From NCBI GenBank assembly GCA_045863235.1, contig BTUM01000004.1:1-64000 (forward strand): a stretch of DNA of 64,000 nt, read 5' to 3'. Source of the stretch: Candidatus Xenobia bacterium. Its GTDB lineage: Bacteria > Vulcanimicrobiota > Xenobia > Xenobiales > QWHO01. The notes beneath the pieces are model-generated. The model was not told the DNA's origin. It worked only from the letters and a program-made list of their open reading frames with translations, and made no database searches. Shown here piece by piece: positions 1-15,152 of the stretch (within the stretch, counting starts at the first letter, position 1; each line of letters starts with the position of its first letter). The translations under genes and the position numbers were made by a program.

Positions 1-152
1 CAGTACCTTGCCGAACTCAGAATTTTTTTCAAGGTTGGCTTGCCGAAAGCTCACGCCGCAGCGCCCCCTTCAAGACGTGGCATGCAAGCGGAGTATTGGC
101 CCAGATTCGCTCCCAGAAGGCCCACCTTCCCCGACCCGAGAACAGCCAGGAC

Positions 153-3140
153 ATGGATCTGCTGGCCGAGCTGAGGGGGCGCTCCACAGGAGCGGCGGTG
201 CTGGTGCACGGGCCCTTCGGCGCGGGCAAAACCCACCTGATCAGCGTGCTCGAGCCGCCTCTGCTGGTGGGGGCGGCCTCCCCCGACGGGTCGGAGGCCT
301 TCGAGGCGTTCCGGGCCGCCCTGGCCAGCGCCGATGACGAGCTGCGGCGCACGCTTGTGCGCACCGCTGGCGCCGGTGGGCCGTTCTTCCACCCCCTGGC
401 ACCGCAGCTCTTCCCGCCACCCAGGCTGGAGCCGCCCGAGGCCTGGTTGGAAGCCGCCTCCCACTGGTTGTGCCAGGTCTCCCGAGAGCATCCCGGGCTG
501 ATACTGGCCTTAGACGACGCCCAGTGGCTGGACGAGCCATCCCGAATGCTGGTGCAATGCCTGGTGCCGCGCCTGGCCAGCGCTCCCCTGGTCCTGCTGC
601 TGGCCTCCGAAAGCGACGAGCCAGCTCTGACCCAGTTCCAACGCCTGCCTCTCAAGCCCGAGGAGAGCCCACTGCTGGCCCGCGAGCTTCAGCACGAGAA
701 CGAGAGCATGGATCTCGAGTCCCTCGTCACCAGCCGACTGGCCAGGATGCAGGAGCAGACGCTGGAGGCCCTGCGCGACGCGGCCCTGCTGGGCACTTAC
801 TTTCCCCTCGAGAAGGCCCTCGAGCCGGCTTTGCAGGCCCGACTGCTCGAGGAGGTGCGACCCGGCCTGTTTCGTCTTATGCACCCGCGCGTCCGGGATA
901 CGCTGCTGGCCAACCTCGATCCCCAGGACCTGCGCCAGCGGCACCAGCGGTTGGGAGCGCCCGGCCGCGGCACGCTCTTCACCCGCGCTCGCCACGTGCG
1001 GGCCGCCGAGCAGACCGGAACGAACGTGCACCAGACGTGTCTTGCGGCCGGTCTCCAGGCGCTCGAGCAGGGGGCGCCGGAGACCGCCCGCGAGTTCTTG
1101 CTGGCCGCCCGCAAGGCCGCTCCCGAGACAACCGACGCGACTTTGCTCAGAGCCCTGGGCCAATCCTGTGCCGCCACCGGACGTCTGGAGGAAGCGCGTC
1201 AGGCGCTGCGAGCGGCTCTGGAGGCAGAGAGCGACCTGCCCACCCGCACCCGGCTGGCTCTGCGACTGGCCCAGTTGGGGCTGCCCGAAAGCGCCCGGGC
1301 TGAGCTCTTGACCCGTGCCCTGCGTGAGAACGGACTGGAGCCCCCCACAGGCTCCTGGCCCGGCATCTTGCGCTCGGCCCTGCGCTGGCTCGGCCCCCGC
1401 AGGCCAGAAAGCTCCAGCCTTCGGGTCGAGGTCATGGGCCTGGCGGCGCTCTGGGCCGCCAGCGAGGTCACCCCTGGACCGCTGCTCGAAGCGGGACTGG
1501 AGGCCTGGCGCCTCAGCCGCCGGTTGGGTCTCTCGCGCGAGAAAGTCCGCCTCAGCTGCGACCTGATGCTCCTGTCGGGTCTGCTCGGATTCGAGCGCCT
1601 GGCCCGCCATTTCCACGGGGTGGCCAGCCGCGAGGCAAGCCAGCTGGCCGACCCGCCAACCCTGGCTCGCACGCGGGTCATGAGCGCCATCACCTCGCAC
1701 TTTTTGGGCCATCCTCTGGAGGCCGAGCTGGAGCTGAGCAAGCACCTCACCGAGCAGGGCCACTGGCTGAGCACGCGCGACTTCCTGTTCGCCTGCAACG
1801 ACCTCTGCTGGAACCTGATGCTGCGGGGCCAGACCCGGCAGGCGCTGCAGTTCGTCGAGCGGGCCCGCGAGCGAGTGCGCCCCTCCCCCGGCAGCCAGGC
1901 CGACCTGGACACGTTGAGCACCTACGTGGTCTCGCTCTCGAGCACGCTGGGACGGGTGCGGGAGGCTTTGGAGACCCTGACCAGCATCCAGGAGCGTTTC
2001 AAGCACGCCCCTCCCCTGCTGCAGGCCAGCCTCTACGGGCACGCGGTGCGCTACTACCTCGAGCAAGACGAGCTGGGCGCCCCGCTGGAGGAGCTTCTGG
2101 GCCGTTTTGCGGCTTTGCAGCTGCCCCCCGCCTGGGTGCCGGTCCACCGGCGCTACTTCTACATCAGCCAGGCCCAGGCGCGGCTGGCCCAGTGCGAGGC
2201 CATCGAGTCCGGCCCGACTCCCGAGTCGTTGGCGCGCCTGAAGACTGCTCTGGAGGAGCTGCGCCGGGCAGCCCGCCCGCCCATCCTGCGAGCCCACCTG
2301 CTGGTGCTGCAGGCCAGCTGGAGCCGGCTCAACGGCCACCTGGAGAGAGCCTTGCGCCAGGTGGAGAAGGCTGAGCGTCTGGCCGACCGACTCGATGCTC
2401 CCGAGATCAACTTCTGGGCCGCCCGCGAGCGGGCTCTGATCAACCGCCTGCAGAGCAATCATGCTGCCAGCTTGCGCTATGCCGAGCTGGCTCACTGGTT
2501 GGCCGGCCTGCAAGGCTGGACCAACAGGGCCCGCCGAATCCGCCGTGAGTTCTCGCTGGGCGCCCTGGTCGCCCGGGAGACTCAGGCCAGCACCACGGCC
2601 TCGCTGGCCACCGAGCGCAGCCGGGCAGAGCGCCTGCAACAGGCCATGCGCCAGTTCCGCGAGGTGCACCAGATGGCCACCACCGACTCTCTGACCGGCA
2701 TCCCCAACCGACGCTTCTTCTTCGAGCAGGCCGAGGAGGTCTGGGCCGATCCGGCCCGGCCCGTGGCGGCCATCTTGCTGGACGTGGATCACTTCAAGCG
2801 GATCAACGACACTTACGGGCACGCCGAGGGCGACCAGGTGCTCAAGGCGGTGGCCGCGACCTGCGCCGGCTGCCTGCGCCAGGGCGACCTGCTCGGACGC
2901 TACGGAGGGGAAGAATTCGCCATCCTGCTCAGCGACGTGCGCGAAGAGGAGGCCCGGGCCAGCGCCGAACGCGTGCGGGCCGCCCTGGAGGCGGCTGCGG
3001 TGGGTACGTTGCGCGTCACCGCCAGCCTGGGAGTGGCCTGCCGGCGCGACGAGGGGGAGCTCTCCGACCTGCTGCGCCGGGCAGACGAGGCTCTCTACCG
3101 GGCCAAGGCGGCTGGGCGCAACCGGGTCGAGCTGGGCTGA
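153..3140 (+). CDS. Diguanylate cyclase with N-terminal AAA/STAND-like P-loop region and TPR-like helical region
   Basis: Walker A GPFGAGKT, Walker B-like LALDDAQW, long helical middle, C-terminal TDSLTGIPNRR...RQGDLLGRYGGEEF. Start placed at ATG 153 (ORF track opens at TTG 96). Confidence 0.85.
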   Translation: MDLLAELRGRSTGAAVLVHGPFGAGKTHLISVLEPPLLVGAASPDGSEAFEAFRAALASADDELRRTLVRTAGAGGPFFHPLAPQLFPPPRLEPPEAWLEAASHWLCQVSREHPGLILALDDAQWLDEPSRMLVQCLVPRLASAPLVLLLASESDEPALTQFQRLPLKPEESPLLARELQHENESMDLESLVTSRLARMQEQTLEALRDAALLGTYFPLEKALEPALQARLLEEVRPGLFRLMHPRVRDTLLANLDPQDLRQRHQRLGAPGRGTLFTRARHVRAAEQTGTNVHQTCLAAGLQALEQGAPETAREFLLAARKAAPETTDATLLRALGQSCAATGRLEEARQALRAALEAESDLPTRTRLALRLAQLGLPESARAELLTRALRENGLEPPTGSWPGILRSALRWLGPRRPESSSLRVEVMGLAALWAASEVTPGPLLEAGLEAWRLSRRLGLSREKVRLSCDLMLLSGLLGFERLARHFHGVASREASQLADPPTLARTRVMSAITSHFLGHPLEAELELSKHLTEQGHWLSTRDFLFACNDLCWNLMLRGQTRQALQFVERARERVRPSPGSQADLDTLSTYVVSLSSTLGRVREALETLTSIQERFKHAPPLLQASLYGHAVRYYLEQDELGAPLEELLGRFAALQLPPAWVPVHRRYFYISQAQARLAQCEAIESGPTPESLARLKTALEELRRAARPPILRAHLLVLQASWSRLNGHLERALRQVEKAERLADRLDAPEINFWAARERALINRLQSNHAASLRYAELAHWLAGLQGWTNRARRIRREFSLGALVARETQASTTASLATERSRAERLQQAMRQFREVHQMATTDSLTGIPNRRFFFEQAEEVWADPARPVAAILLDVDHFKRINDTYGHAEGDQVLKAVAATCAGCLRQGDLLGRYGGEEFAILLSDVREEEARASAERVRAALEAAAVGTLRVTASLGVACRRDEGELSDLLRRADEALYRAKAAGRNRVELG

Positions 3141-3152
3141 TTCATCGTCCCT

Positions 3153-3521
3153 TTAGAACGGGGCCCGGGCCACGAAGTACTTGGTCAGTTTCCTGGTGAC
3201 CTCCCAGATCGTGGTGCAGCCCTGCGGAAAGTGGGCCGAGTCGCCCGCCACCAGGGTTCGGGTGGGGCCGCCAGGGCGGCAGTCGGTGACGGTCAGCTCG
3301 CCCTCCACGATGTAGACGAACTCGTCGTAATCGAAGTGGAACTGGTAGCGCCCGACCTCGCAAGACCAGAATCCGGCGCTGGCGCCCTCGTCGGCGCTCT
3401 GGGCAGTGAAGAGGCAGCGGGCCCGGGGGGAGCCCTCCAGCACCTCCTCGGCCGGCAACTCGATGGAAGGCAACGGGCCTTTCGGCAGCTTGCCGAAGCT
3501 GACGCGGGCGGCGCGGCTCAT
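3153..3521 (-). CDS. DUF861/EutQ-like cupin
   Basis: GFWSCEVG...YDEFVYIVEG...AGDSAHFPQG...WEV signature; start ATG overlaps the stop of the upstream ACAD-like gene (ATGA). Confidence 0.85.
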   Translation of the reverse strand: MSRAARVSFGKLPKGPLPSIELPAEEVLEGSPRARCLFTAQSADEGASAGFWSCEVGRYQFHFDYDEFVYIVEGELTVTDCRPGGPTRTLVAGDSAHFPQGCTTIWEVTRKLTKYFVARAPF

Positions 3522-4750
3522 CCCAACGCCCAGGCGAACATGCCCGTGTAGGGCTCGCTCGAGAGCATGTCGGCACCGAACGAGCGCTCGATCTTGGCCG
3601 TGATGGTGGGGTGCATCGGCCCGAAGTTGATCTGCTCGCTCAGGGCCGCGATGGGATGGTTGGGACTCATCGAGCGGGTGCCGATCAGGTTGCGCGCCCC
3701 GGTCACGATGTGACAGGCGGCGCGAGTGCCGCTGTACTTGATGAGCGAGCCGCAATCCATCAGGTCGTTGGCCACCTTGTCGATCTCCTCGGGAGGGCCC
3801 TGCGAGCGTACCAGCCGGCAGTAGCGGTCGCAGCAGAGCCCGAAGCTGCGGGCCAGGGCCAGCTGCGAGCGAAGCTCCAGCGAGAGCCGGCCCGAGTCGA
3901 CCATGAACCCGTCCACCTCGGCCAGCGGCTCGTCGTCGTCGGTATGCACCGAGTTCGCGAACTTGCGCACCTCCTCCAGGGCCCGGCAGGCCCCTCCCAG
4001 GTACGCGGCCGTCACCAGCGCCTCGAACCAGGCGGTGGCGTAGAAGGAAACGTGATCGGTCAGATCGTCGGAAATGGAGAGCACGTTGCGACTTTTGAGG
4101 CGTAGATTGTTGAACTGGACCGGACGCGTGTCGGTCAGGGCCATGGCCCCCGGAAAGAGCGAGGGCCCCAGCTCGATGGCCGGCTGGTTCTTCAGGTTGA
4201 CGTAGAACATCCCCATCTCCTCGCCCACGAAACCGCTGAACAGAAGGATGTCAGCCTCCGAGGCGATGGACTGAAAACCCTTGCGCCCCGAGCACAGAAA
4301 GCCTCCGTCGCTCTGGGGGATGGCCACCACGTTGCGAAAAGCCTCGTCCTTATGCTTGATGTTCTCGCCAAAGCTGGAGATGGCCATCAGCGAGCGATAG
4401 CGGCGGATGGTATCCACCAGCATCTGGCGCCGTCGCTCGAACTCCGGCACCGAGGGGACAGGCAAGGTTGCCAGGGCAGCCAGGTTGTACTGGTGCATGG
4501 TCAGCCCCACCGCCAGGGGCACCGAGGCCCGGGCCATCAGGTAGAAAGCCTCGTAGGAGCGCACAAAGAGCTCGCCGGCGTCCTCTTGCAGATAGCAGGG
4601 CAGATACGGGATGGAGCTGGCACGCACGGCATCGAAGAAGGTGCGCGACTTCTTGTCGGGGGCAGCAACCTCCACCTTCTCGGCGATCTCGCGCGCCTGG
4701 GCCCGAATGGACTCGCGGTCGATTGCGGGCGGGGCCAGGGTCTTACTCAT
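3518..4750 (-). CDS. Acyl-CoA dehydrogenase-fold flavoprotein, VlmH-like amine N-hydroxylase candidate
   Basis: LAVGLTMH, GFLCSGRKGFQS, AWFEALVTAAYLGGA and C-terminal GPMHP; start MSKTL at 4750 overlaps the upstream stop. Confidence 0.75.
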   Translation of the reverse strand: MSKTLAPPAIDRESIRAQAREIAEKVEVAAPDKKSRTFFDAVRASSIPYLPCYLQEDAGELFVRSYEAFYLMARASVPLAVGLTMHQYNLAALATLPVPSVPEFERRRQMLVDTIRRYRSLMAISSFGENIKHKDEAFRNVVAIPQSDGGFLCSGRKGFQSIASEADILLFSGFVGEEMGMFYVNLKNQPAIELGPSLFPGAMALTDTRPVQFNNLRLKSRNVLSISDDLTDHVSFYATAWFEALVTAAYLGGACRALEEVRKFANSVHTDDDEPLAEVDGFMVDSGRLSLELRSQLALARSFGLCCDRYCRLVRSQGPPEEIDKVANDLMDCGSLIKYSGTRAACHIVTGARNLIGTRSMSPNHPIAALSEQINFGPMHPTITAKIERSFGADMLSSEPYTGMFAWALG

Positions 4751-5648
4751 CGACCGCCGTCTCGGGCTCAGCCTCGGACCCGGATTCATCCTCGCCGTCC
4801 CCGGGCGATACGGCCGGAAGCGCCTGGCGCAGGCCGGAGGCCCCTGCCAGCACCTGGGCCCAGCCGTGATGAAGCTCGCGGGTGGAGCGGTTCTCCTCCA
4901 CGGCGTGCATGCGATTGACGCCCTCCAGGGCGCTCTCCACCACCCGCAGCATGTGCGGGAAGCTGGGATCCTCCGGATGCTCGTCCACCGACTGCTGGAG
5001 CAACGCCTGGGCCTCGAGCAGGGTGAACTCGAGCGGCTGCAAGGCCTGCATCAGCTCCGCCAGCCCCGCTTCTCCCGCCAGGACGCGGGTGTAGGCCTCG
5101 TAGACGGCCATGAACTCGTCGTTGACCTGCACCTGCTCGAACTCGATCTCGTTGGGCTCCGGGTCAGGGATGAGCCGATCGACCTCGCAGTTGGGGCAGG
5201 TCGACTCAGGGCCACTGGAGCCGCATCCGGGACAGATGGGGGTGGATGAAGCGGCCAACTGAGCCAGCTCATCGCAAGACCGCAGAAAACGGCTCGAGCA
5301 ACCTTCCAGCTCCTGCAGAGCGGCAGCGGCGTCACCGTGCCCCTCCAGGGCGTCGTGCATGGTCGCCAGGCTCTGCTCGAGGTTGGCACAGGCAGCCAGG
5401 TTCGATTCGATGAGCGCAAAGAGCGGTCCGTCCAGCCCTCCGGGCCGGTGGTCGAGATGGCCGCGACGCTCTTGCTCGCTGGCCTGAACCCGCTCCCGCA
5501 TGCGTTGCAGGTGGCCGAGCAACTCGGGGTCAGGCTTCTCGAGGCCCTCGCGGAGAAGCTCGAGCAGGCCTTCAAGGCGGTTGGGGTCGGGGCCCTCGGG
5601 GGCTCCGCCGAAAGTGCTGATGAGGTTGTTCAGGTAGCCAGATGCCAT
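4743..5648 (-). CDS. Hypothetical helical protein with central zinc ribbon
   Basis: 301 aa with CPGC...CPNC between two helical halves; overlaps the next gene. Confidence 0.7.
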   Translation of the reverse strand: MASGYLNNLISTFGGAPEGPDPNRLEGLLELLREGLEKPDPELLGHLQRMRERVQASEQERRGHLDHRPGGLDGPLFALIESNLAACANLEQSLATMHDALEGHGDAAAALQELEGCSSRFLRSCDELAQLAASSTPICPGCGSSGPESTCPNCEVDRLIPDPEPNEIEFEQVQVNDEFMAVYEAYTRVLAGEAGLAELMQALQPLEFTLLEAQALLQQSVDEHPEDPSFPHMLRVVESALEGVNRMHAVEENRSTRELHHGWAQVLAGASGLRQALPAVSPGDGEDESGSEAEPETAVDE

Positions 5649-5738
5649 TGGTTTGGCCTTCGCTCGTCAGGCAAAAAGTCCCTGGCCCAGCGCTTGCCGA
5701 GGCTCGGGTTCTTGCCCGTCGCGCATCGCGCGCCATGC

Positions 5739-5767
5739 AAAAAGGGCCCGGATTGCCCGGAGCCCTT
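5739..5767 (-). terminator. Intrinsic terminator
   Basis: Minus strand AAGGGCTCCGG-GCAAT-CCGGGCCCTTTTT just after the stop at 5790. Confidence 0.7.
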
Positions 5768-5789: not shown

Positions 5790-6302
5790 TTAGAAGCCGC
5801 TGCGTCCGAACTGGTTGAGGAAACCGCCCATTCCCGGGTTGGCGCCAGCGGCGGCGTTGTTCTGGGAATTGGCGAGCATCAGTCCGACCATCAAGCCGAG
5901 CAGCATCTGCTGCTGATCCATCCCGCCGAGTTGACCCGCTCCGGCGCCAGCCATCTGGCCCATCGGGTTGCAGCCCTGAGCGTTCCCAGCCCCGGCCATG
6001 GCCATGGCAATCGCCAGGCTGGCATTGTTCTGAAGCGGGTTGGACTGGTTGTTCTGGTTGTTCTTGCCGTTCTTACCGTTCTTGCCGTTCTTGCCATGCT
6101 TGCCGGCTTTGCCATTCTTGCCGTGCTTGCCAGCCTTGCCAGCCTTTCCACCGGCCGCGGCTCCGGCCTCAGCCTGAGCGCCCGAGGACGAGGAGATCGA
6201 GATAGCCAGAGCCATCGAGAAGGCACCCGAAGTGGCCTGGCCGCCACCCGGAGCGCAAAGGGCGGGGTTGTGAAGTCCGGCACCAGCAAGGGTATTGCAC
6301 AT
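5790..6302 (-). CDS. Gly/Ala/Asn/Met-rich low-complexity protein with GK[N/H/A] tripeptide repeats
   Basis: 170 aa ORF with GGAGG RBS, its own terminator and 9-bp tandem repeats at about 6045-6150. Confidence 0.75.
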   Translation of the reverse strand: MCNTLAGAGLHNPALCAPGGGQATSGAFSMALAISISSSSGAQAEAGAAAGGKAGKAGKHGKNGKAGKHGKNGKNGKNGKNNQNNQSNPLQNNASLAIAMAMAGAGNAQGCNPMGQMAGAGAGQLGGMDQQQMLLGLMVGLMLANSQNNAAAGANPGMGGFLNQFGRSGF

Positions 6303-6551: not shown

Positions 6552-8468
6552 ATGCTGATCCGCAAGTTCGACCGTACCCAGCTCGACTCCGAGCCCCACA
6601 ACGTGCTCTTCAAGGACCTCTACCCCTGGGACGCAATCGGGGAAACCCCGTTCGGCGCCAGCCTGGCCCTGGTCGAGGTGGGCGGCGAGACCATGCTCCA
6701 CAGCCACCATCCGGCGGAAACGTTCTTTATCTGCCAGGGACGGGGCACCATGACGGTCAACGGCGAAACGACCCCGGTCTCCACGGGAGACGTGATCTAC
6801 CTTCCGCCCGGCAGCCAGCACACTCTCAAGAACACCTCCGAGGGCGAATCGCTCATGTTCTTGTCGGTTTTCTGGGACGCCGAGCAGGATGAGGAAGCGG
6901 AGCCCGAGCAGGCGCAGGAGCAGCCCAGGCTGTTCTTCCCCAGCCCCCCTACGCCCAACGGGCCGCTCCACCTCGGCCACCTCAGCGGGCCCTACCTGGC
7001 CGCCGAGGTGCTGCGCCGCTATGACCGCATGCGGGGACTTGCCTCCCGGTATTTGTGCCTGGCCGACGACCATCAGAGCTACGTGGTGCTGCGCTCGGAG
7101 CTCGAAGAGAGCACCCCCGCCGAGACCGCCATCAGGTATGCCGACCAGGCCGTTACCCTGCTCGAGGCCTTCGACGCCGCCCCCGACCTGTGGGTCTTCT
7201 CCAGTCGCGATGAGCGCTACCAGGAGGCGGTGCGTCAGGCGCTCGACCAGCTCAAGCTCGAGGAACGAGAAGAACCGGCCCTCTACTGCCCGAGCTGCGA
7301 GCACTACCTGGTGGACGGCCGAGCGGCCGGAGACTGCCCCCACTGTGGCGAGAGCTGCCGGGGATTCTTGTGCGAGAGTTGCTGCTTGCCCAACCGAACC
7401 ATCGATCTGCTCGAGCCGACTTGCATCGACTGCAAGGCCGCGGCCGCGCTCAAGCCTCTCAAGCAGCTCTTCTTCTCGCTCGAGCCCTGGCGCGAGCGGC
7501 TGCTGGCCTACCACGGCAGCCTGCGCCTGAGCCCCCGCCTCTTGAGCCTGGTAGCCCGCATCGCGCAGCTCAGTCCGCTGGAGCTGACCGCCTCCCACCC
7601 GGGCAGGTGGGGCATCCCCTCCCCGCTGGAAGGCCAGGTCATCTCGCCCTGGCTGGAAGCCGCTCTGGCTCTCCCCTACCTGCGGGCCAGGGCCGGCCTG
7701 GAGGGACCGATGGTGGCCTCGTTCGGGGCTGACAACGCCTTCCTCTACCTCTTCCAGGACCCGGCCGTGGCCCTGGCTCTGGGCCAGCAGCCTGCCGCCC
7801 AGCTCGTGTCCAACGAGCACCTGATGCTCGATGAGCGAAAGATGTCTACCAGCGCCGCCCACGCCCTGAACGCGGCCGCCGTGCTGGAGAAGGTGCCCAG
7901 CGACCTGGTGCGCCTCTTCCTCGCCACCGTACGCCCCGAGCAGGCCGATTCGAGCTGCTCGCTGGAAGCCATGGAGCACTTCCTCCAACAGAGCGTCGTC
8001 CGGCCCTGGCAAGATCTGCTCGAGCGCATCGGGCGCCAGGTCACCGCCGAGGCCGGCTCCAAGGCCCCTGCCGTGGGGGTCTGGAGCCCCGAGCAGTATG
8101 AGTTTCTCGAACGTCTCAACGAGCTGCTGACGCGGGCCGAAAGCGGCTACACCACGGGTTCTCTGCGCGAGGTGGCCCGAGCCCTGCACGAGCTGATCGA
8201 GCGAGTGGCGGCCTTCGAGGCGGCTCAGAGTTATCTGGCCCGGGTCCCGGGCCTGGAGTCCCAGCGAGCCACCGCGCTGGCCCTGATGCTGGCCGCCCTG
8301 CGGCTGCTGGCTACCATCGCCCAACCGCTGATGCCGAGGTTCTCGGCCCTGCTCAACAAGCACCTGGGCTTCCTTAAGCCCGAGCCCTGGCCCGAGGAGG
8401 TGCTCTTCCTCAACCCTGGCCAGCGCATTCTGGCGGCAGCGGGACTGTCGGCCCGGCGCTACTTTTGA
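6552..8468 (+). CDS. Cupin/methionyl-tRNA synthetase-like fusion (Spb40/PyrN/Tri28-type hydrazine synthetase candidate)
   Basis: N-terminal cupin (HSHHPAE...GDVIYLPPGSQH), then PPTPNGPLHLGH, ADDHQSYV, four CxxC zinc-knuckle pairs, KMSTS and a helical anticodon-like domain. Confidence 0.85.
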   Translation: MLIRKFDRTQLDSEPHNVLFKDLYPWDAIGETPFGASLALVEVGGETMLHSHHPAETFFICQGRGTMTVNGETTPVSTGDVIYLPPGSQHTLKNTSEGESLMFLSVFWDAEQDEEAEPEQAQEQPRLFFPSPPTPNGPLHLGHLSGPYLAAEVLRRYDRMRGLASRYLCLADDHQSYVVLRSELEESTPAETAIRYADQAVTLLEAFDAAPDLWVFSSRDERYQEAVRQALDQLKLEEREEPALYCPSCEHYLVDGRAAGDCPHCGESCRGFLCESCCLPNRTIDLLEPTCIDCKAAAALKPLKQLFFSLEPWRERLLAYHGSLRLSPRLLSLVARIAQLSPLELTASHPGRWGIPSPLEGQVISPWLEAALALPYLRARAGLEGPMVASFGADNAFLYLFQDPAVALALGQQPAAQLVSNEHLMLDERKMSTSAAHALNAAAVLEKVPSDLVRLFLATVRPEQADSSCSLEAMEHFLQQSVVRPWQDLLERIGRQVTAEAGSKAPAVGVWSPEQYEFLERLNELLTRAESGYTTGSLREVARALHELIERVAAFEAAQSYLARVPGLESQRATALALMLAALRLLATIAQPLMPRFSALLNKHLGFLKPEPWPEEVLFLNPGQRILAAAGLSARRYF

Positions 8469-9562
8469 TCGCCGTCATCGGGGGCGGGGTGATGGGCGCC
8501 AGCATCGCCTACCACCTGGCCCTCAAGGGCGCCCGCCAGGTGGTGTTGCTGGAGCGGGGGACCCTCTGCTGCGGCGAGACCGCCAAGTCGGGCGGCTTCA
8601 TCCAGACCCACTGGACCAGCCTGGCCGAGACCCGCCTGATCGACTTTTCTCGCACCATCTTCCAGCAGTGGGGAGAGCGTTGCGGCTGGGTCAACTCGGG
8701 CTACCTGCACGTGACCGGCCCCGAGAAGCTCGATTCGGTCAGAGCGGTGCACGACATGTTGCTCTCTGACGGCAAGGAGTCGCACTGGCTGGATCAGCGA
8801 GGCATCAAGACGCTGCAGCCGCTGATGCGGGTGGACGACCTGGTGGGAGCGGCCTACGAGCCCCACAGCGGTTGGGCCGACCCGGTGGCCACCACCCGCC
8901 TGCTGGCGACCCTGGCCCGGGAGCAGGGAGCGGAACTGCGCGAGGGGGTCACGGTGCTGCAGATCGTCCACCGCCACGGAAAGATCATGGGCGTGGAGAC
9001 CGATCAGGGGTTTTTGGAGGCTGAGAAAGTCGTCCTGGCAGCCGGACCCTGGACCCCTGGCCTGCATCCCGACCCGCGGGTGAGGCTGCCCGTCCTGGCC
9101 CGGCGCGGCCAGGTCACTTACATGACCCGCCCGGGAGGGTTGCCCCGGCGCGAGCTGGCCTGCTATGACGAGATCACCGGGCTCTACACCCACTGCGACG
9201 GGGACACCAACCTGGTGGGGATCGACTGGGACTTCGACCCGGTCTACCATCCCGACAGCTACGACCGCGAGCTGGACGCGGACTACCTGGCCGCCGCCCT
9301 GGAAGCCCTGACCCACCGCTTCCCTTCGCTGAGGAGCTCTCAGCTGGTGCGCGGGGTGGTGGGGCTCTACGACTTCACCCCCGATGGCCATCCGGTGGTG
9401 GATGGGCCGCTCGGCATCGAGGGATACTACGTCGCGGCCGGCTTCAGCGGGGCCGGCTTCAAGAGCGCGCCGGCCCTGGGATTGGGAATGGCCGAGCTGG
9501 TGCTGGAAGGGCGAGCCAGCTCGGTCGACCTGGACTTCTTACGGTTGGCTCGATTTGGATGA
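8465..9562 (+). CDS. FAD-dependent oxidoreductase, DAO/sarcosine oxidase family
   Basis: VIGGGVMG dinucleotide motif, YDFTPDGHPVV, GFSGAGFK; TTG start overlaps the stop of the cupin-MetRS gene. Confidence 0.9.
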   Translation: MIAVIGGGVMGASIAYHLALKGARQVVLLERGTLCCGETAKSGGFIQTHWTSLAETRLIDFSRTIFQQWGERCGWVNSGYLHVTGPEKLDSVRAVHDMLLSDGKESHWLDQRGIKTLQPLMRVDDLVGAAYEPHSGWADPVATTRLLATLAREQGAELREGVTVLQIVHRHGKIMGVETDQGFLEAEKVVLAAGPWTPGLHPDPRVRLPVLARRGQVTYMTRPGGLPRRELACYDEITGLYTHCDGDTNLVGIDWDFDPVYHPDSYDRELDADYLAAALEALTHRFPSLRSSQLVRGVVGLYDFTPDGHPVVDGPLGIEGYYVAAGFSGAGFKSAPALGLGMAELVLEGRASSVDLDFLRLARFG

Positions 9563-13082: not shown

Positions 13083-15152
13083 CTACCCCCCGGCGGCGTC
13101 CTGGGGGTGTCGACGGATGACCTCGTCCAGGTCCTCTTTGCTGAAGCGGTTCCCCGGGTTATTGAAGGGCCAGATTCCTCCCTGATACGTGATCTCGTCC
13201 ACGGCCTGGAACATGGCCGGGTTGCCCACCAGGAACTGAGCCGCGGCCTTCAAATCGGGAGGAGCACCCGGGCTGTTGGCAATGGCCTGCAGGTCGCCCA
13301 TTCCGATGATGCCGTCGCGCCCGCCCACACCGGAGGCGGTATCGACCAGGTCGAAGTAGCGCTTGAGGATGACCGCGGCCTGGCCCAGCGTCATGGTCTG
13401 AGGGGCCGTCGTCTGGTTGTCGAACTGCGAGAAGTTCTGCACCGCTTCGTGCAGGTCGTTGCGACCGATGATGCCGTCCACGTCGCCTCGCCCGTCGGCC
13501 ACGTCGATAGCGTTGAAGAGAGCGGGGTTGGCCAGTAAGAATTCGCAGGCCTCGCGCAGCTCAGGGGGCGCATTGGGAGCGCGCCCGCCCACGATGGCCT
13601 CGAGATCGCTCTTGCCGATGCGACCATCGGCCCCACCCTGTCCAGCGGCCGTATCCATGATGTCGAAGTTGGCCTGCAGGACGGCGGCGGCGCGAGCCAC
13701 CGTCATAGGAGGACGCTGGGGCTCGGGTTGAGGGTCAGGGGTCGGCTCCGGCACGGGCTCGGGTCGAGTGGCGTCGCCCGAGTTGTTTTGAATGGTGGCG
13801 TCCAGATCACGCATCCCGATGATGCCATCGCGATCGCCTACTCCGGCGGCTGTATCCACCGCGTCGAAGATGGCCGGGTTGTCGAGCAGGAACTGCACGG
13901 CCGCTTTCAGATCAGGGGGAGCGCCCGGAGCAGCGGCCACGGCCTCGAGATCGGTTTTCCCGATGCGACCATCCAGGCCGCCCTGGCCTCCAGCCGCATC
14001 GAGCACCCCGAAGTAACGCTTCAAGATGACGGCCGCCCGGCCTGCGGTCATCTGATCGGGAACCTGATTGTTGCTGTCGAGCTGGGCGTAGTTCTGGATG
14101 GCGGCCGTCAGGTCGTTGCGACCGATGCGCCCGTCCACGTCGCCGCTGCCGGCGGCCACATCCAGAGCATTGAAAAGAGCTCCATTGTCGAGCAAGAAGC
14201 GGCATGCCTGCTGCAACTCGGCCGAGGCGTTGGGGGCGCGCCCGCCCACGATGGCTTCCAGGTCGGGCTTGCCGATGATTCCGTCGGCCCCTCCCAGCCC
14301 GGCGGCCGTGTCCACCAGGTCGAAATTGGCCTGCAGGATGGAAGCTGCGCGAGCCAGGGTCATGGGGCGCTCGGGCTGAGGCTCGGGACCAGGATCGGGA
14401 ACCGGGTCCGGCTCGGGGGCGGGCTCAGGCTCAGGACACGGCTCAGGCTCAGGCTCAGGGCAGGGCTCTGGCTCAGGGCAGGGCTCAGGCTCGGGAGTCG
14501 GGGTTGGGGTTGGGGTTGGGGTTGGGGTTGGAGTCGGAGTCGGAGTAGGGGTGGGAGTTGGAGTCGGGGTGGGAGTTGGAGTTGGAGTTGGAGTTGGAGT
14601 CGGCGTGGGATGCGGATGAGGATGCGGGCAGGGCGGTTGAGGCTGGTGGCCCTGCTGCTGTTGGAGCATCTGAAGCAAAGCCATCAGATTGGCTGGACCC
14701 TGCTGCTGCTGGCCCAGGAGCATCAAGAGCATCATCATGAACTGTTGCTGCTGTTGCTGCATCATCATGAACATCATCATCATGGTGGGGTCCATGCATC
14801 CCCCGCCGGGATAGCCCATCATGCCGGGCATCCCCATTCCCGAGCCCATGCCGGGAAAGCCGAACATCTGCGCCATCAGATTGGTGCCAGGCGCGCCACC
14901 ACCCATGTTCAGGTGGGGCAGCGCAGGCAGGGCTGGGAAGGGACAGCATTGGCGCACTCCCTGGATGTCGGCGCCGCACTGGCTGTAATAGGCTGTGTGA
15001 GCCGCCACCTGGTGAGCCGACATCGACTCCACCGGCACCATTCCGGTCGCCAGGGCCTGCTGCACCGCAGCCATGCGCTGGCTCTGAGCCTCGCGCATCT
15101 GGGGAGAGATCACGACCAGCTGGGGGCCGAAACCGGAAATCGAGTCGCTCAC
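13083..15152 (-). CDS. Met/Gln-rich, Pro-linker protein with four HrpF/NolX-like (EF-hand-like DG.IG..DL) repeats
   Basis: GTG start with GAAGGAG RBS; poly-M/Q region, (PT)n and (PE)n linker, repeats containing PPDLKAAxQFLxxNPAxFxAVD. Confidence 0.8.
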   Translation of the reverse strand: MSDSISGFGPQLVVISPQMREAQSQRMAAVQQALATGMVPVESMSAHQVAAHTAYYSQCGADIQGVRQCCPFPALPALPHLNMGGGAPGTNLMAQMFGFPGMGSGMGMPGMMGYPGGGCMDPTMMMMFMMMQQQQQQFMMMLLMLLGQQQQGPANLMALLQMLQQQQGHQPQPPCPHPHPHPTPTPTPTPTPTPTPTPTPTPTPTPTPTPTPTPTPTPTPEPEPCPEPEPCPEPEPEPCPEPEPAPEPDPVPDPGPEPQPERPMTLARAASILQANFDLVDTAAGLGGADGIIGKPDLEAIVGGRAPNASAELQQACRFLLDNGALFNALDVAAGSGDVDGRIGRNDLTAAIQNYAQLDSNNQVPDQMTAGRAAVILKRYFGVLDAAGGQGGLDGRIGKTDLEAVAAAPGAPPDLKAAVQFLLDNPAIFDAVDTAAGVGDRDGIIGMRDLDATIQNNSGDATRPEPVPEPTPDPQPEPQRPPMTVARAAAVLQANFDIMDTAAGQGGADGRIGKSDLEAIVGGRAPNAPPELREACEFLLANPALFNAIDVADGRGDVDGIIGRNDLHEAVQNFSQFDNQTTAPQTMTLGQAAVILKRYFDLVDTASGVGGRDGIIGMGDLQAIANSPGAPPDLKAAAQFLVGNPAMFQAVDEITYQGGIWPFNNPGNRFSKEDLDEVIRRHPQDAAGG
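14400..14625 (-). repeat. Coding hexanucleotide repeats (Pro-Thr, Pro-Glu)
   Basis: GG[G/A]GT[T/C] and GGCTC[A/G] arrays in frame with the 13083-15152 CDS. Confidence 0.9.

Follow-up and report, generated by a model that had tools for sequence, protein, structure and literature searches.

The stretch of DNA analysed here, called the window below, is 64,000 nucleotides (nt) long and covers positions 1 to 64,000 of contig BTUM01000004.1 (GCA_045863235.1), from a Candidatus Xenobia bacterium of the Vulcanimicrobiota. Near its start lies a gene for a protein with the fold of the acyl-CoA dehydrogenases (ACAD). A preliminary description took this protein to resemble the valanimycin N-hydroxylase VlmH and to be a possible replacement hydroxylase serving a nearby hydrazine synthetase, in which a cupin domain is joined to a methionyl-tRNA synthetase (MetRS)-like domain. 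It missed two neighbouring genes, a small Gly-Lys-repeat (GK) gene and orf301, both of which bear on the substrate. The features of the locus are as follows (aa, amino acids; FAD, flavin adenine dinucleotide).

3153..3521, minus strand: cupin_3 (PF05899) protein, 122 aa; its start overlaps the ACAD stop
3518..4750, minus strand: ACAD-fold flavin monooxygenase, predicted N-hydroxylase, 410 aa; from open frame, motifs, fold and alignment to DszC
4743..5648, minus strand: orf301, helical bundle with a CxxC..CxxC zinc ribbon, adaptor candidate; its stop overlaps the ACAD start
5737..5761, minus strand: intrinsic-terminator-like hairpin and U run downstream of the GK gene, from sequence
5790..6302, minus strand: small GK protein, 170 aa, candidate precursor or substrate; 10 lysines, all in a GK[AHN] core at about 6060-6149
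6552..8468, plus strand: cupin-MetRS-like hydrazine synthetase, 638 aa; cupin H50/H52/E56/H90, pocket code SPDQWANY (Gly-like)
8465..9562, plus strand: DAO-family FAD oxidoreductase, 365 aa, by its domain family a predicted C-N cleaving oxidase in the role of Spb39

These six genes form a conserved cassette, which was compared in 15 genome loci and 15 metagenome loci that are partly redundant. It is found in two families of a bacterial order without cultured members. The records are labelled Vulcanimicrobiota/Eremiobacterota, 'bacterium' or 'Burkholderiales'; the genomes matching the four loci labelled 'uncultured Burkholderiales' (L002, L007, L009, L010) fall, by their placement, in the same order as the window, and these labels look wrong. 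Commonly the oxidase and synthetase genes are on one strand, and the lysine-rich gene, orf301, the ACAD gene and usually cupin_3 are divergent from them. The synthetase gene is present in 10 of the 15 genome loci, and four of the genomes behind the other five carry it on another contig. One locus has orf301 and ACAD duplicated jointly, as a tandem orf301-ACAD-cupin_3-orf301-ACAD (L003:6086-11230). Outside the cassette, an AAA-ATPase/TPR/GGDEF protein at 96-3140 (plus strand) is convergent on it and adjoins it in the closest relatives only. A 689-aa protein at 13083-15152 (minus strand) is rich in Met and Gln at its N-terminus and has long PT and PEPCPE repeats, with repeated units in its C-terminal part.

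The open frame and motifs of the ACAD-fold protein were confirmed as first described: LTMH at residues 83-86, AWFEALVTAAYLGGA at 240-254 and MHP at 379-381, with no GGxG or [IV]YEGT motif found in a motif scan of the protein. Only the wording 'terminal' for MHP was loose, the motif being about 30 residues upstream of the C-terminal end. The gene is conserved, with 56 homologues of 31-93% identity. Residues H86, S161, W241, F242 and P381 are invariant in all 53 aligned homologues, and H380 and E243 are present in 52. An AlphaFold model (predicted local distance difference test, pLDDT, 91) has the three-domain ACAD fold, which upholds the earlier fold assignment. The family extends into other phyla, with 64 representatives at 50% clustering and E values up to 1e-30 in a search of 1.84 billion representatives that has a weak tail at E about 1e-7. 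No characterised member was found among the solved structures searched. The ESM Atlas returned generic ACAD clusters, cluster look-ups of distant members gave generic names and few taxa, and little was gained from two further profile searches of a word-indexed database. Plasmid searches with the distant members P0098, P0112, P0144, P0077 and P0079 found no matches. P0061 is an 810-aa protein with two tandem copies of the family, in which the HP motif is altered.

The top solved relatives of the protein are the monooxygenases DszC and TdsC. DszC is the best solved sequence match, with a profile E value of 3e-18 against 4e-9 to 2e-8 for the top dehydrogenases, and it ranked first in a separate profile search (E 4e-13). 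Ser161 aligns with DszC Ser163, which we take to act near flavin N5, and His380 with DszC His391. The latter assists C4a-hydroperoxyflavin formation (PMC11134501). In S161 and H380 the protein thus has the residues expected of a group D flavin monooxygenase, a Ser near flavin N5 and a His for the C4a-hydroperoxyflavin. It has neither the YEG catalytic Glu of true acyl-CoA dehydrogenases, a position taken by Pro381 in the wide alignment, nor their GGxG. Judged from these alignments, its active-site anatomy is that of a two-component flavin monooxygenase. Unlike DszC and TdsC, to which it is about 20% identical, the protein scores 27 bits against an NCBIfam cut-off of 850, and the sulfur-metabolism context is absent here. 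As stated earlier for the window, no flavin reductase (PF01613) was found on the contig; the genome has two, on contigs C20 and C5.

Is the protein then related to VlmH in particular? Streptomyces plasmid genes taken as VlmH orthologues by synteny (L089, L093) stood in for VlmH itself, and were reached through one member of the weak search tail (E about 1e-7). Both loci are valanimycin-type azoxy clusters on linear plasmids, and carry DUF2156, flavin reductase, VlmB-like and serS genes, L093 also a decarboxylase gene. The VlmH motifs named in the preliminary description are borne out in the synteny-defined orthologue, which has TMH, WFELLITSAYVG (WFELL..S.YVG type) and FHPP. The ACAD-fold protein shares with it the fold, TMH at 84-86, and the WFE..AY.G and HP motifs. 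Profile-profile alignment of the two families has a probability of 99.1%, the local alignment is 25% identical over 201 residues, and the VlmH profile gives the protein 56 bits against 12-17 for true ACADs. Other measures set VlmH no closer than other relatives. Global identity is 22.5-23.5% to VlmH, 23.8% to a DszC-like protein and 21.5% to a true ACAD. Scored with the ACAD-family profile, VlmH reaches 51-58 bits, true ACADs 56 and the DszC-like protein 66. In trees from quick searches of 86 and 25 rows, which contain no true DszC, KijD3, ChmG or AlnG sequences, the family and VlmH are two separate clades at 100 in the Shimodaira-Hasegawa-like approximate likelihood ratio test (SH-aLRT). Their sisterhood is borderline (approximately unbiased test, p-AU 0.050), the nearest rows to VlmH are proteins other than the ACAD family, and true ACADs form a clade apart from this family. 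Orthology to VlmH is ruled out by identity, profile scores and trees. The resemblance to VlmH first described therefore stands for the shared motifs and falls for special kinship, since identity (23%) is no better than to the DszC-like protein and the clades are separate. The protein is not a member of the VlmH clade, yet its function may be similar. Neither vlmA, vlmO, vlmB and vlmR, which are present in L089 and L093, nor a reductase or decarboxylase gene is among the conserved cassette neighbours. As the conserved cassette has no valanimycin-type genes, the azoxy-pathway chemistry that had been invoked for it is analogy only. A further VlmH-like gene, on Nostoc plasmid pC052_E (L091), is clustered with genes for a nitric oxide synthase oxygenase, an aminotransferase, a glycosyltransferase and a formyltransferase.

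The cupin-MetRS gene reported near the ACAD gene is real. The best PDB match of its product is the C-terminal domain of PyrN, at E 5e-59 against 2.5e-27 for MetRS. The cupin ligands H50, H52, E56 and H90 are present in all 14 synthetase orthologues and are the equivalents of residues that were mutated in PyrN (PMC8664883). With the HLGH and KxSTx motifs that it also carries, the protein has the features of a cupin-MetRS synthetase. Its eight-residue pocket code, [SA]PDQW[AVILM]NY in 14 of 14 orthologues, is nearest the Gly code of Spb40/AzsN, TPDQWMNH (PMC12376268). Glycine is therefore predicted from the pocket, and is probably the amino acid used. PyrN itself has an open cavity and a relaxed hydroxylamine specificity (bioRxiv 2025.08.22.671884). 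Of the residues that bind N6-hydroxylysine in PyrN (bioRxiv 2025.08.22.671884), N143, E286, D420 and N421 are kept here and E284 is lost, a pattern that favours neither free nor peptidyl lysine.

The standard route begins with the hydroxylation of lysine by Spb38, after which Spb40 couples glycine and Spb39 sets free hydrazinoacetate and aminoadipate semialdehyde (PMC13274452). The cassette resembles Spb38/Spb40/Spb39, and likewise AzsL/N/S, FuzD-G and NngK/M/L, in its cupin-MetRS synthetase with intact cupin ligands and a Gly-like pocket, and in its FAD oxidoreductase. The oxidase gene was assigned to the DAO family and set beside Spb39 by description. The cupin_3 gene is relocated beside the oxidase gene in some genomes and fused to it in two loci of genus g6 (L078:7549-9054, L079:8172-9626). 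This suggests that cupin_3 works with the oxidase. Unlike the Spb38 systems, the cassette has an ACAD-fold enzyme, orf301, cupin_3 and a lysine-rich gene instead of a PF13434 lysine monooxygenase, and no conserved nonribosomal peptide synthetase (NRPS), carrier or ligase genes. Decarboxylase and transporter genes are likewise not conserved in it.

The ACAD family was found in 16 of 301 genomes of the phylum, all of them among the 40 genomes of the window's order. Synthetase orthologues are present in 16 genomes and oxidase orthologues also in 16, and 15 genomes carry the full set of three. Two genomes depart from this: G083 (75% complete), which has the ACAD gene only, and G109 (64% complete), in which the contig begins within the synthetase gene. 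Three genomes of the same family, G057, G063 and G105 (94-96% complete), have none of the three. In the divergent genus g6 the cassette is scattered, with an ACAD paralogue of 29-33% identity directly behind the synthetase gene (L043, L045) and a second ACAD at a separate site. The ACAD-synthetase link thus outlasts rearrangement. In a different family of the phylum (L082-L085; G236, G278), cupin and MetRS-like genes are mostly split, and no match to the ACAD family was found there. In G093 a gene with a B3/4 (tRNA-editing-like) domain is directly upstream of the second ACAD (L044:10754-11896); in the window's own genome B3/4 matches are only on other contigs. Genes for tRNA deacylases are known to mark clusters for non-canonical amino acids (PMC13149037).

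No Lys/Orn N-monooxygenase (PF13434, the Spb38 family) was found in any of the 40 genomes of the order at E 1e-8, a search that did not extend to diiron, P450 and CreE-type N-oxygenases; one partial match (E 1e-3) is present in the window's own genome. This leaves the ACAD-fold protein as the only conserved oxygenase candidate. It is quite probable that it is the N-hydroxylase for the cassette synthetase. The replacement-hydroxylase idea of the preliminary description holds at this strength because 15 of the 16 ACAD genomes carry the synthetase and oxidase and none of the 40 has a Lys/Orn N-monooxygenase, and because the top solved relatives are monooxygenases. Neither of the two outcomes that would have spoken against it, canonical dehydrogenases as the best matches and a lack of co-occurrence with the cupin-MetRS gene, was obtained.

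What would this hydroxylase act on? The GK gene is the only small gene of its kind in its genome. In 12 of the 15 genome loci orf301 has a complete GK gene in front of it; the gene is cut in L011 and missing from L002, and L014 has no flank. The cores are (GKx)n or (GK)n repeats in mixed synonymous codons, within conserved flanks that end in an F-x-x-x-(G)F-type tail. Lysines are concentrated in the core, with 211 of the 227 in 18 GK proteins falling within one 45-residue window. The gene is present in three tandem copies in L021/L022, two in L025, and two or three in L033. Among the 16 ACAD genomes, 14 contain GK repeats; (GKx)5 is absent from all 24 genomes without the ACAD. Eight of about 55 listed short GK matches in enzyme-less genomes were checked; six fell within unrelated proteins (for example, in the tail of one resembling ribosomal L6), and two were tiny GK peptides. 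A collagen-like triple helix was considered on a weak Pfam Collagen match and rejected. Several orthologues use (GK)n instead of triplets, so it is the lysine density that is conserved. Tiny Gly/Lys-rich peptides of 51-80 aa are encoded at L106:2726-2881, L110:1436-1627 and an upstream open reading frame (ORF) of L053, and two of them share the layout of the GK proteins, a core and then a hydrophobic helix. A hairpin with a U-rich 3' side follows the GK stop in 16 of 17 spacers, one of which was mis-cut, a count made without a shuffle control. In the shortest spacers about 18-30 nt separate the hairpin from the orf301 start, which suggests read-through in several loci. In RNA run X2 a 535-nt contig at 5779-6313, spanning the GK gene, has a depth of 26, and six other cassette contigs have depths of 2-6; contigs of this sort do not allow genes to be ranked, DNA carry-over was uncontrolled, and this is not counted as evidence.

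The layout recalls, in general terms, that of clusters for ribosomally synthesized and post-translationally modified peptides (RiPP): a small gene with a repetitive core and conserved flanks, tandem copies, a terminator before the enzyme genes, and a candidate recognition protein. That candidate is orf301, which precedes the ACAD gene in 14 of the 15 genome loci. Domain searches matched orf301 to no known family, and the ESM Atlas returned only Vulcanimicrobiota hypothetical proteins, under 0.9. Its genome has two paralogues (G000:C15:40528-41421 and C56:34930-35757), the latter following a 156-aa low-complexity ORF without GK repeats. The ACAD-fold protein is predicted to bind orf301. The modelled complex scores 0.72 against 0.01 for the best control, contacts agree by at least 93% between runs, and partner pLDDT is at least 77. 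The score mark used is reached by 116 of 157 solved pairs and 2 of 215 mismatched pairs, approximate counts obtained with our own alignments. The modelled interface joins ACAD residues 106-120 and 219-222 to orf301 residues 200-215, with conserved residues on both sides.

We tentatively propose as the likeliest mechanism, at a probability of about 45%, that the ACAD-fold protein N-hydroxylates lysines of the GK protein, after which glycine would be coupled and hydrazinoacetate released by oxidation. A ribosomal protein would then be the scaffold for N-N bond formation, with as many as about ten sites bearing N6-(carboxymethylamino)lysine before the release. In this scheme orf301 would deliver the GK protein to the ACAD-fold enzyme, and a flavin reductase encoded elsewhere would supply reduced flavin. 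His380 would support C4a-hydroperoxyflavin formation, and lysine N6 would be hydroxylated. The MetRS-like domain would adenylate a small amino acid, probably glycine, and esterify the N-hydroxyl group, and the zinc cupin would rearrange the ester into an N-N bond. Finally, the DAO-family oxidase and cupin_3 would cut the C-N bond, with hydrazinoacetate leaving and an aldehyde (allysine) remaining in the protein. Such leftover aldehydes could cross-link the GK protein. There is precedent for ACAD-fold N-oxygenases acting on protein-tethered amines in ChmG (PMC10849742) and, putatively, AlnG (PMC7347517). Unlike ChmG, AlnG and KijD3/DnmZ, the cassette has no carrier-protein or thymidine diphosphate (TDP)-sugar genes, ChmG and AlnG being set apart here by description.

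Several observations weigh against a GK protein substrate. G065 and G093 (99% and 98% complete) each carry two ACADs of the family together with synthetase and oxidase genes, but no long GK repeat; G065 has only short Gly/Lys-rich peptides, one of them before an orf301 homologue. Conversely, G105 keeps an irregular lysine-rich gene in front of an orf301 homologue and G063 a 51-aa GK peptide, both without the enzymes, and there are GK and orf301 pairs with no ACAD nearby (L007 second copy, L054, L057). L002, for which 0.6 kb of flank is available, has orf301 and ACAD but lacks a GK gene there, and orf301 belongs to a larger lineage-specific family. Unlike RiPP clusters, the compared loci have no conserved leader-removing protease or exporter, functions that might be supplied in trans. 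In the synthetase, the residues D420/N421 and E286, which bind free N6-hydroxylysine in PyrN, are retained. All the genomes are kin, so the co-occurrence counts are not independent, and the N-oxygenase search was confined to PF13434.

Several of these observations count in favour of an enzyme that hydroxylates the nitrogen of free lysine or of a diamine, in the way that VlmH acts on isobutylamine, in a cassette that makes hydrazinoacetate like Spb38/40/39. On this view orf301 would have an activating or scaffolding role, and the GK gene would either happen to lie nearby or encode a separately secreted protein. The characterised hydrazine synthetases described in the literature covered all use free N-hydroxy amino acids or amines (PMC11705231, PMC13755311, bioRxiv 2025.08.22.671884), and the terminator-like hairpin sets the GK gene apart from orf301. 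However, orf301, encoded next after the GK gene, is a predicted binding partner of the ACAD-fold protein, and a free-amine enzyme has no evident need for one of this kind. The regular GK core tracks the enzymes and expands in tandem, the short terminator-to-orf301 distances suggest read-through, and the decarboxylase, transporter, carrier protein or ligase genes are missing from the conserved set. We regard this explanation as the less probable of the two, while a serious contender.

It is unlikely that the ACAD-fold protein is instead a monooxygenase of a later step, turning the hydrazine into a hydrazone, azo or azoxy group or hydroxylating carbon or sulfur, with the hydroxylamine coming from another class of enzyme. 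Its closest solved relatives are S-oxygenases, the family lies outside the VlmH clade, the two family members in G065 and G093 allow two different steps, and PF13434 is the sole N-oxygenase class excluded. Yet no other oxygenase-type gene is conserved in the cassette, the synthetase depends on an N-hydroxy substrate, and the MH, WFE..AY.G and HP motifs are common to the protein and VlmH. An ordinary acyl-CoA or acyl-ACP dehydrogenase, as the database labels have it, tied to the cassette by inheritance only, is very improbable given the missing YEG Glu and GGxG, the His at the DszC position, the separate clade of true ACADs and the link to the synthetase that survives in the divergent genus.

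In the available parts of the literature, including PMC11705231, PMC13755311 and PMC13149037, we found neither an ACAD-fold hydroxylase nor a ribosomal precursor associated with a hydrazine synthetase, and no RiPP with hydrazine synthetase chemistry; a 401-sequence synthetase phylogeny and preprint supplements could mention such clusters. One review (of PMC11705231 and PMC13755311) lists VlmH among hydroxylamine suppliers in general. Mining for hydrazine synthetases was filtered on a neighbouring N-hydroxylase gene (bioRxiv 2025.08.22.671884), so clusters in which this enzyme is labelled as an ACAD may be overlooked. With six small genes, direct testing in E. coli is feasible. The chance that new post-translational chemistry is encoded here is near even. 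If the substrate is the lysine-rich protein, lysine N6-hydroxylation and N-N bond formation on proteins would join the known post-translational chemistry, and the cassette would represent an undescribed way of building N-N bonds on a protein, as a hydrazine post-translational modification or a class of RiPP.
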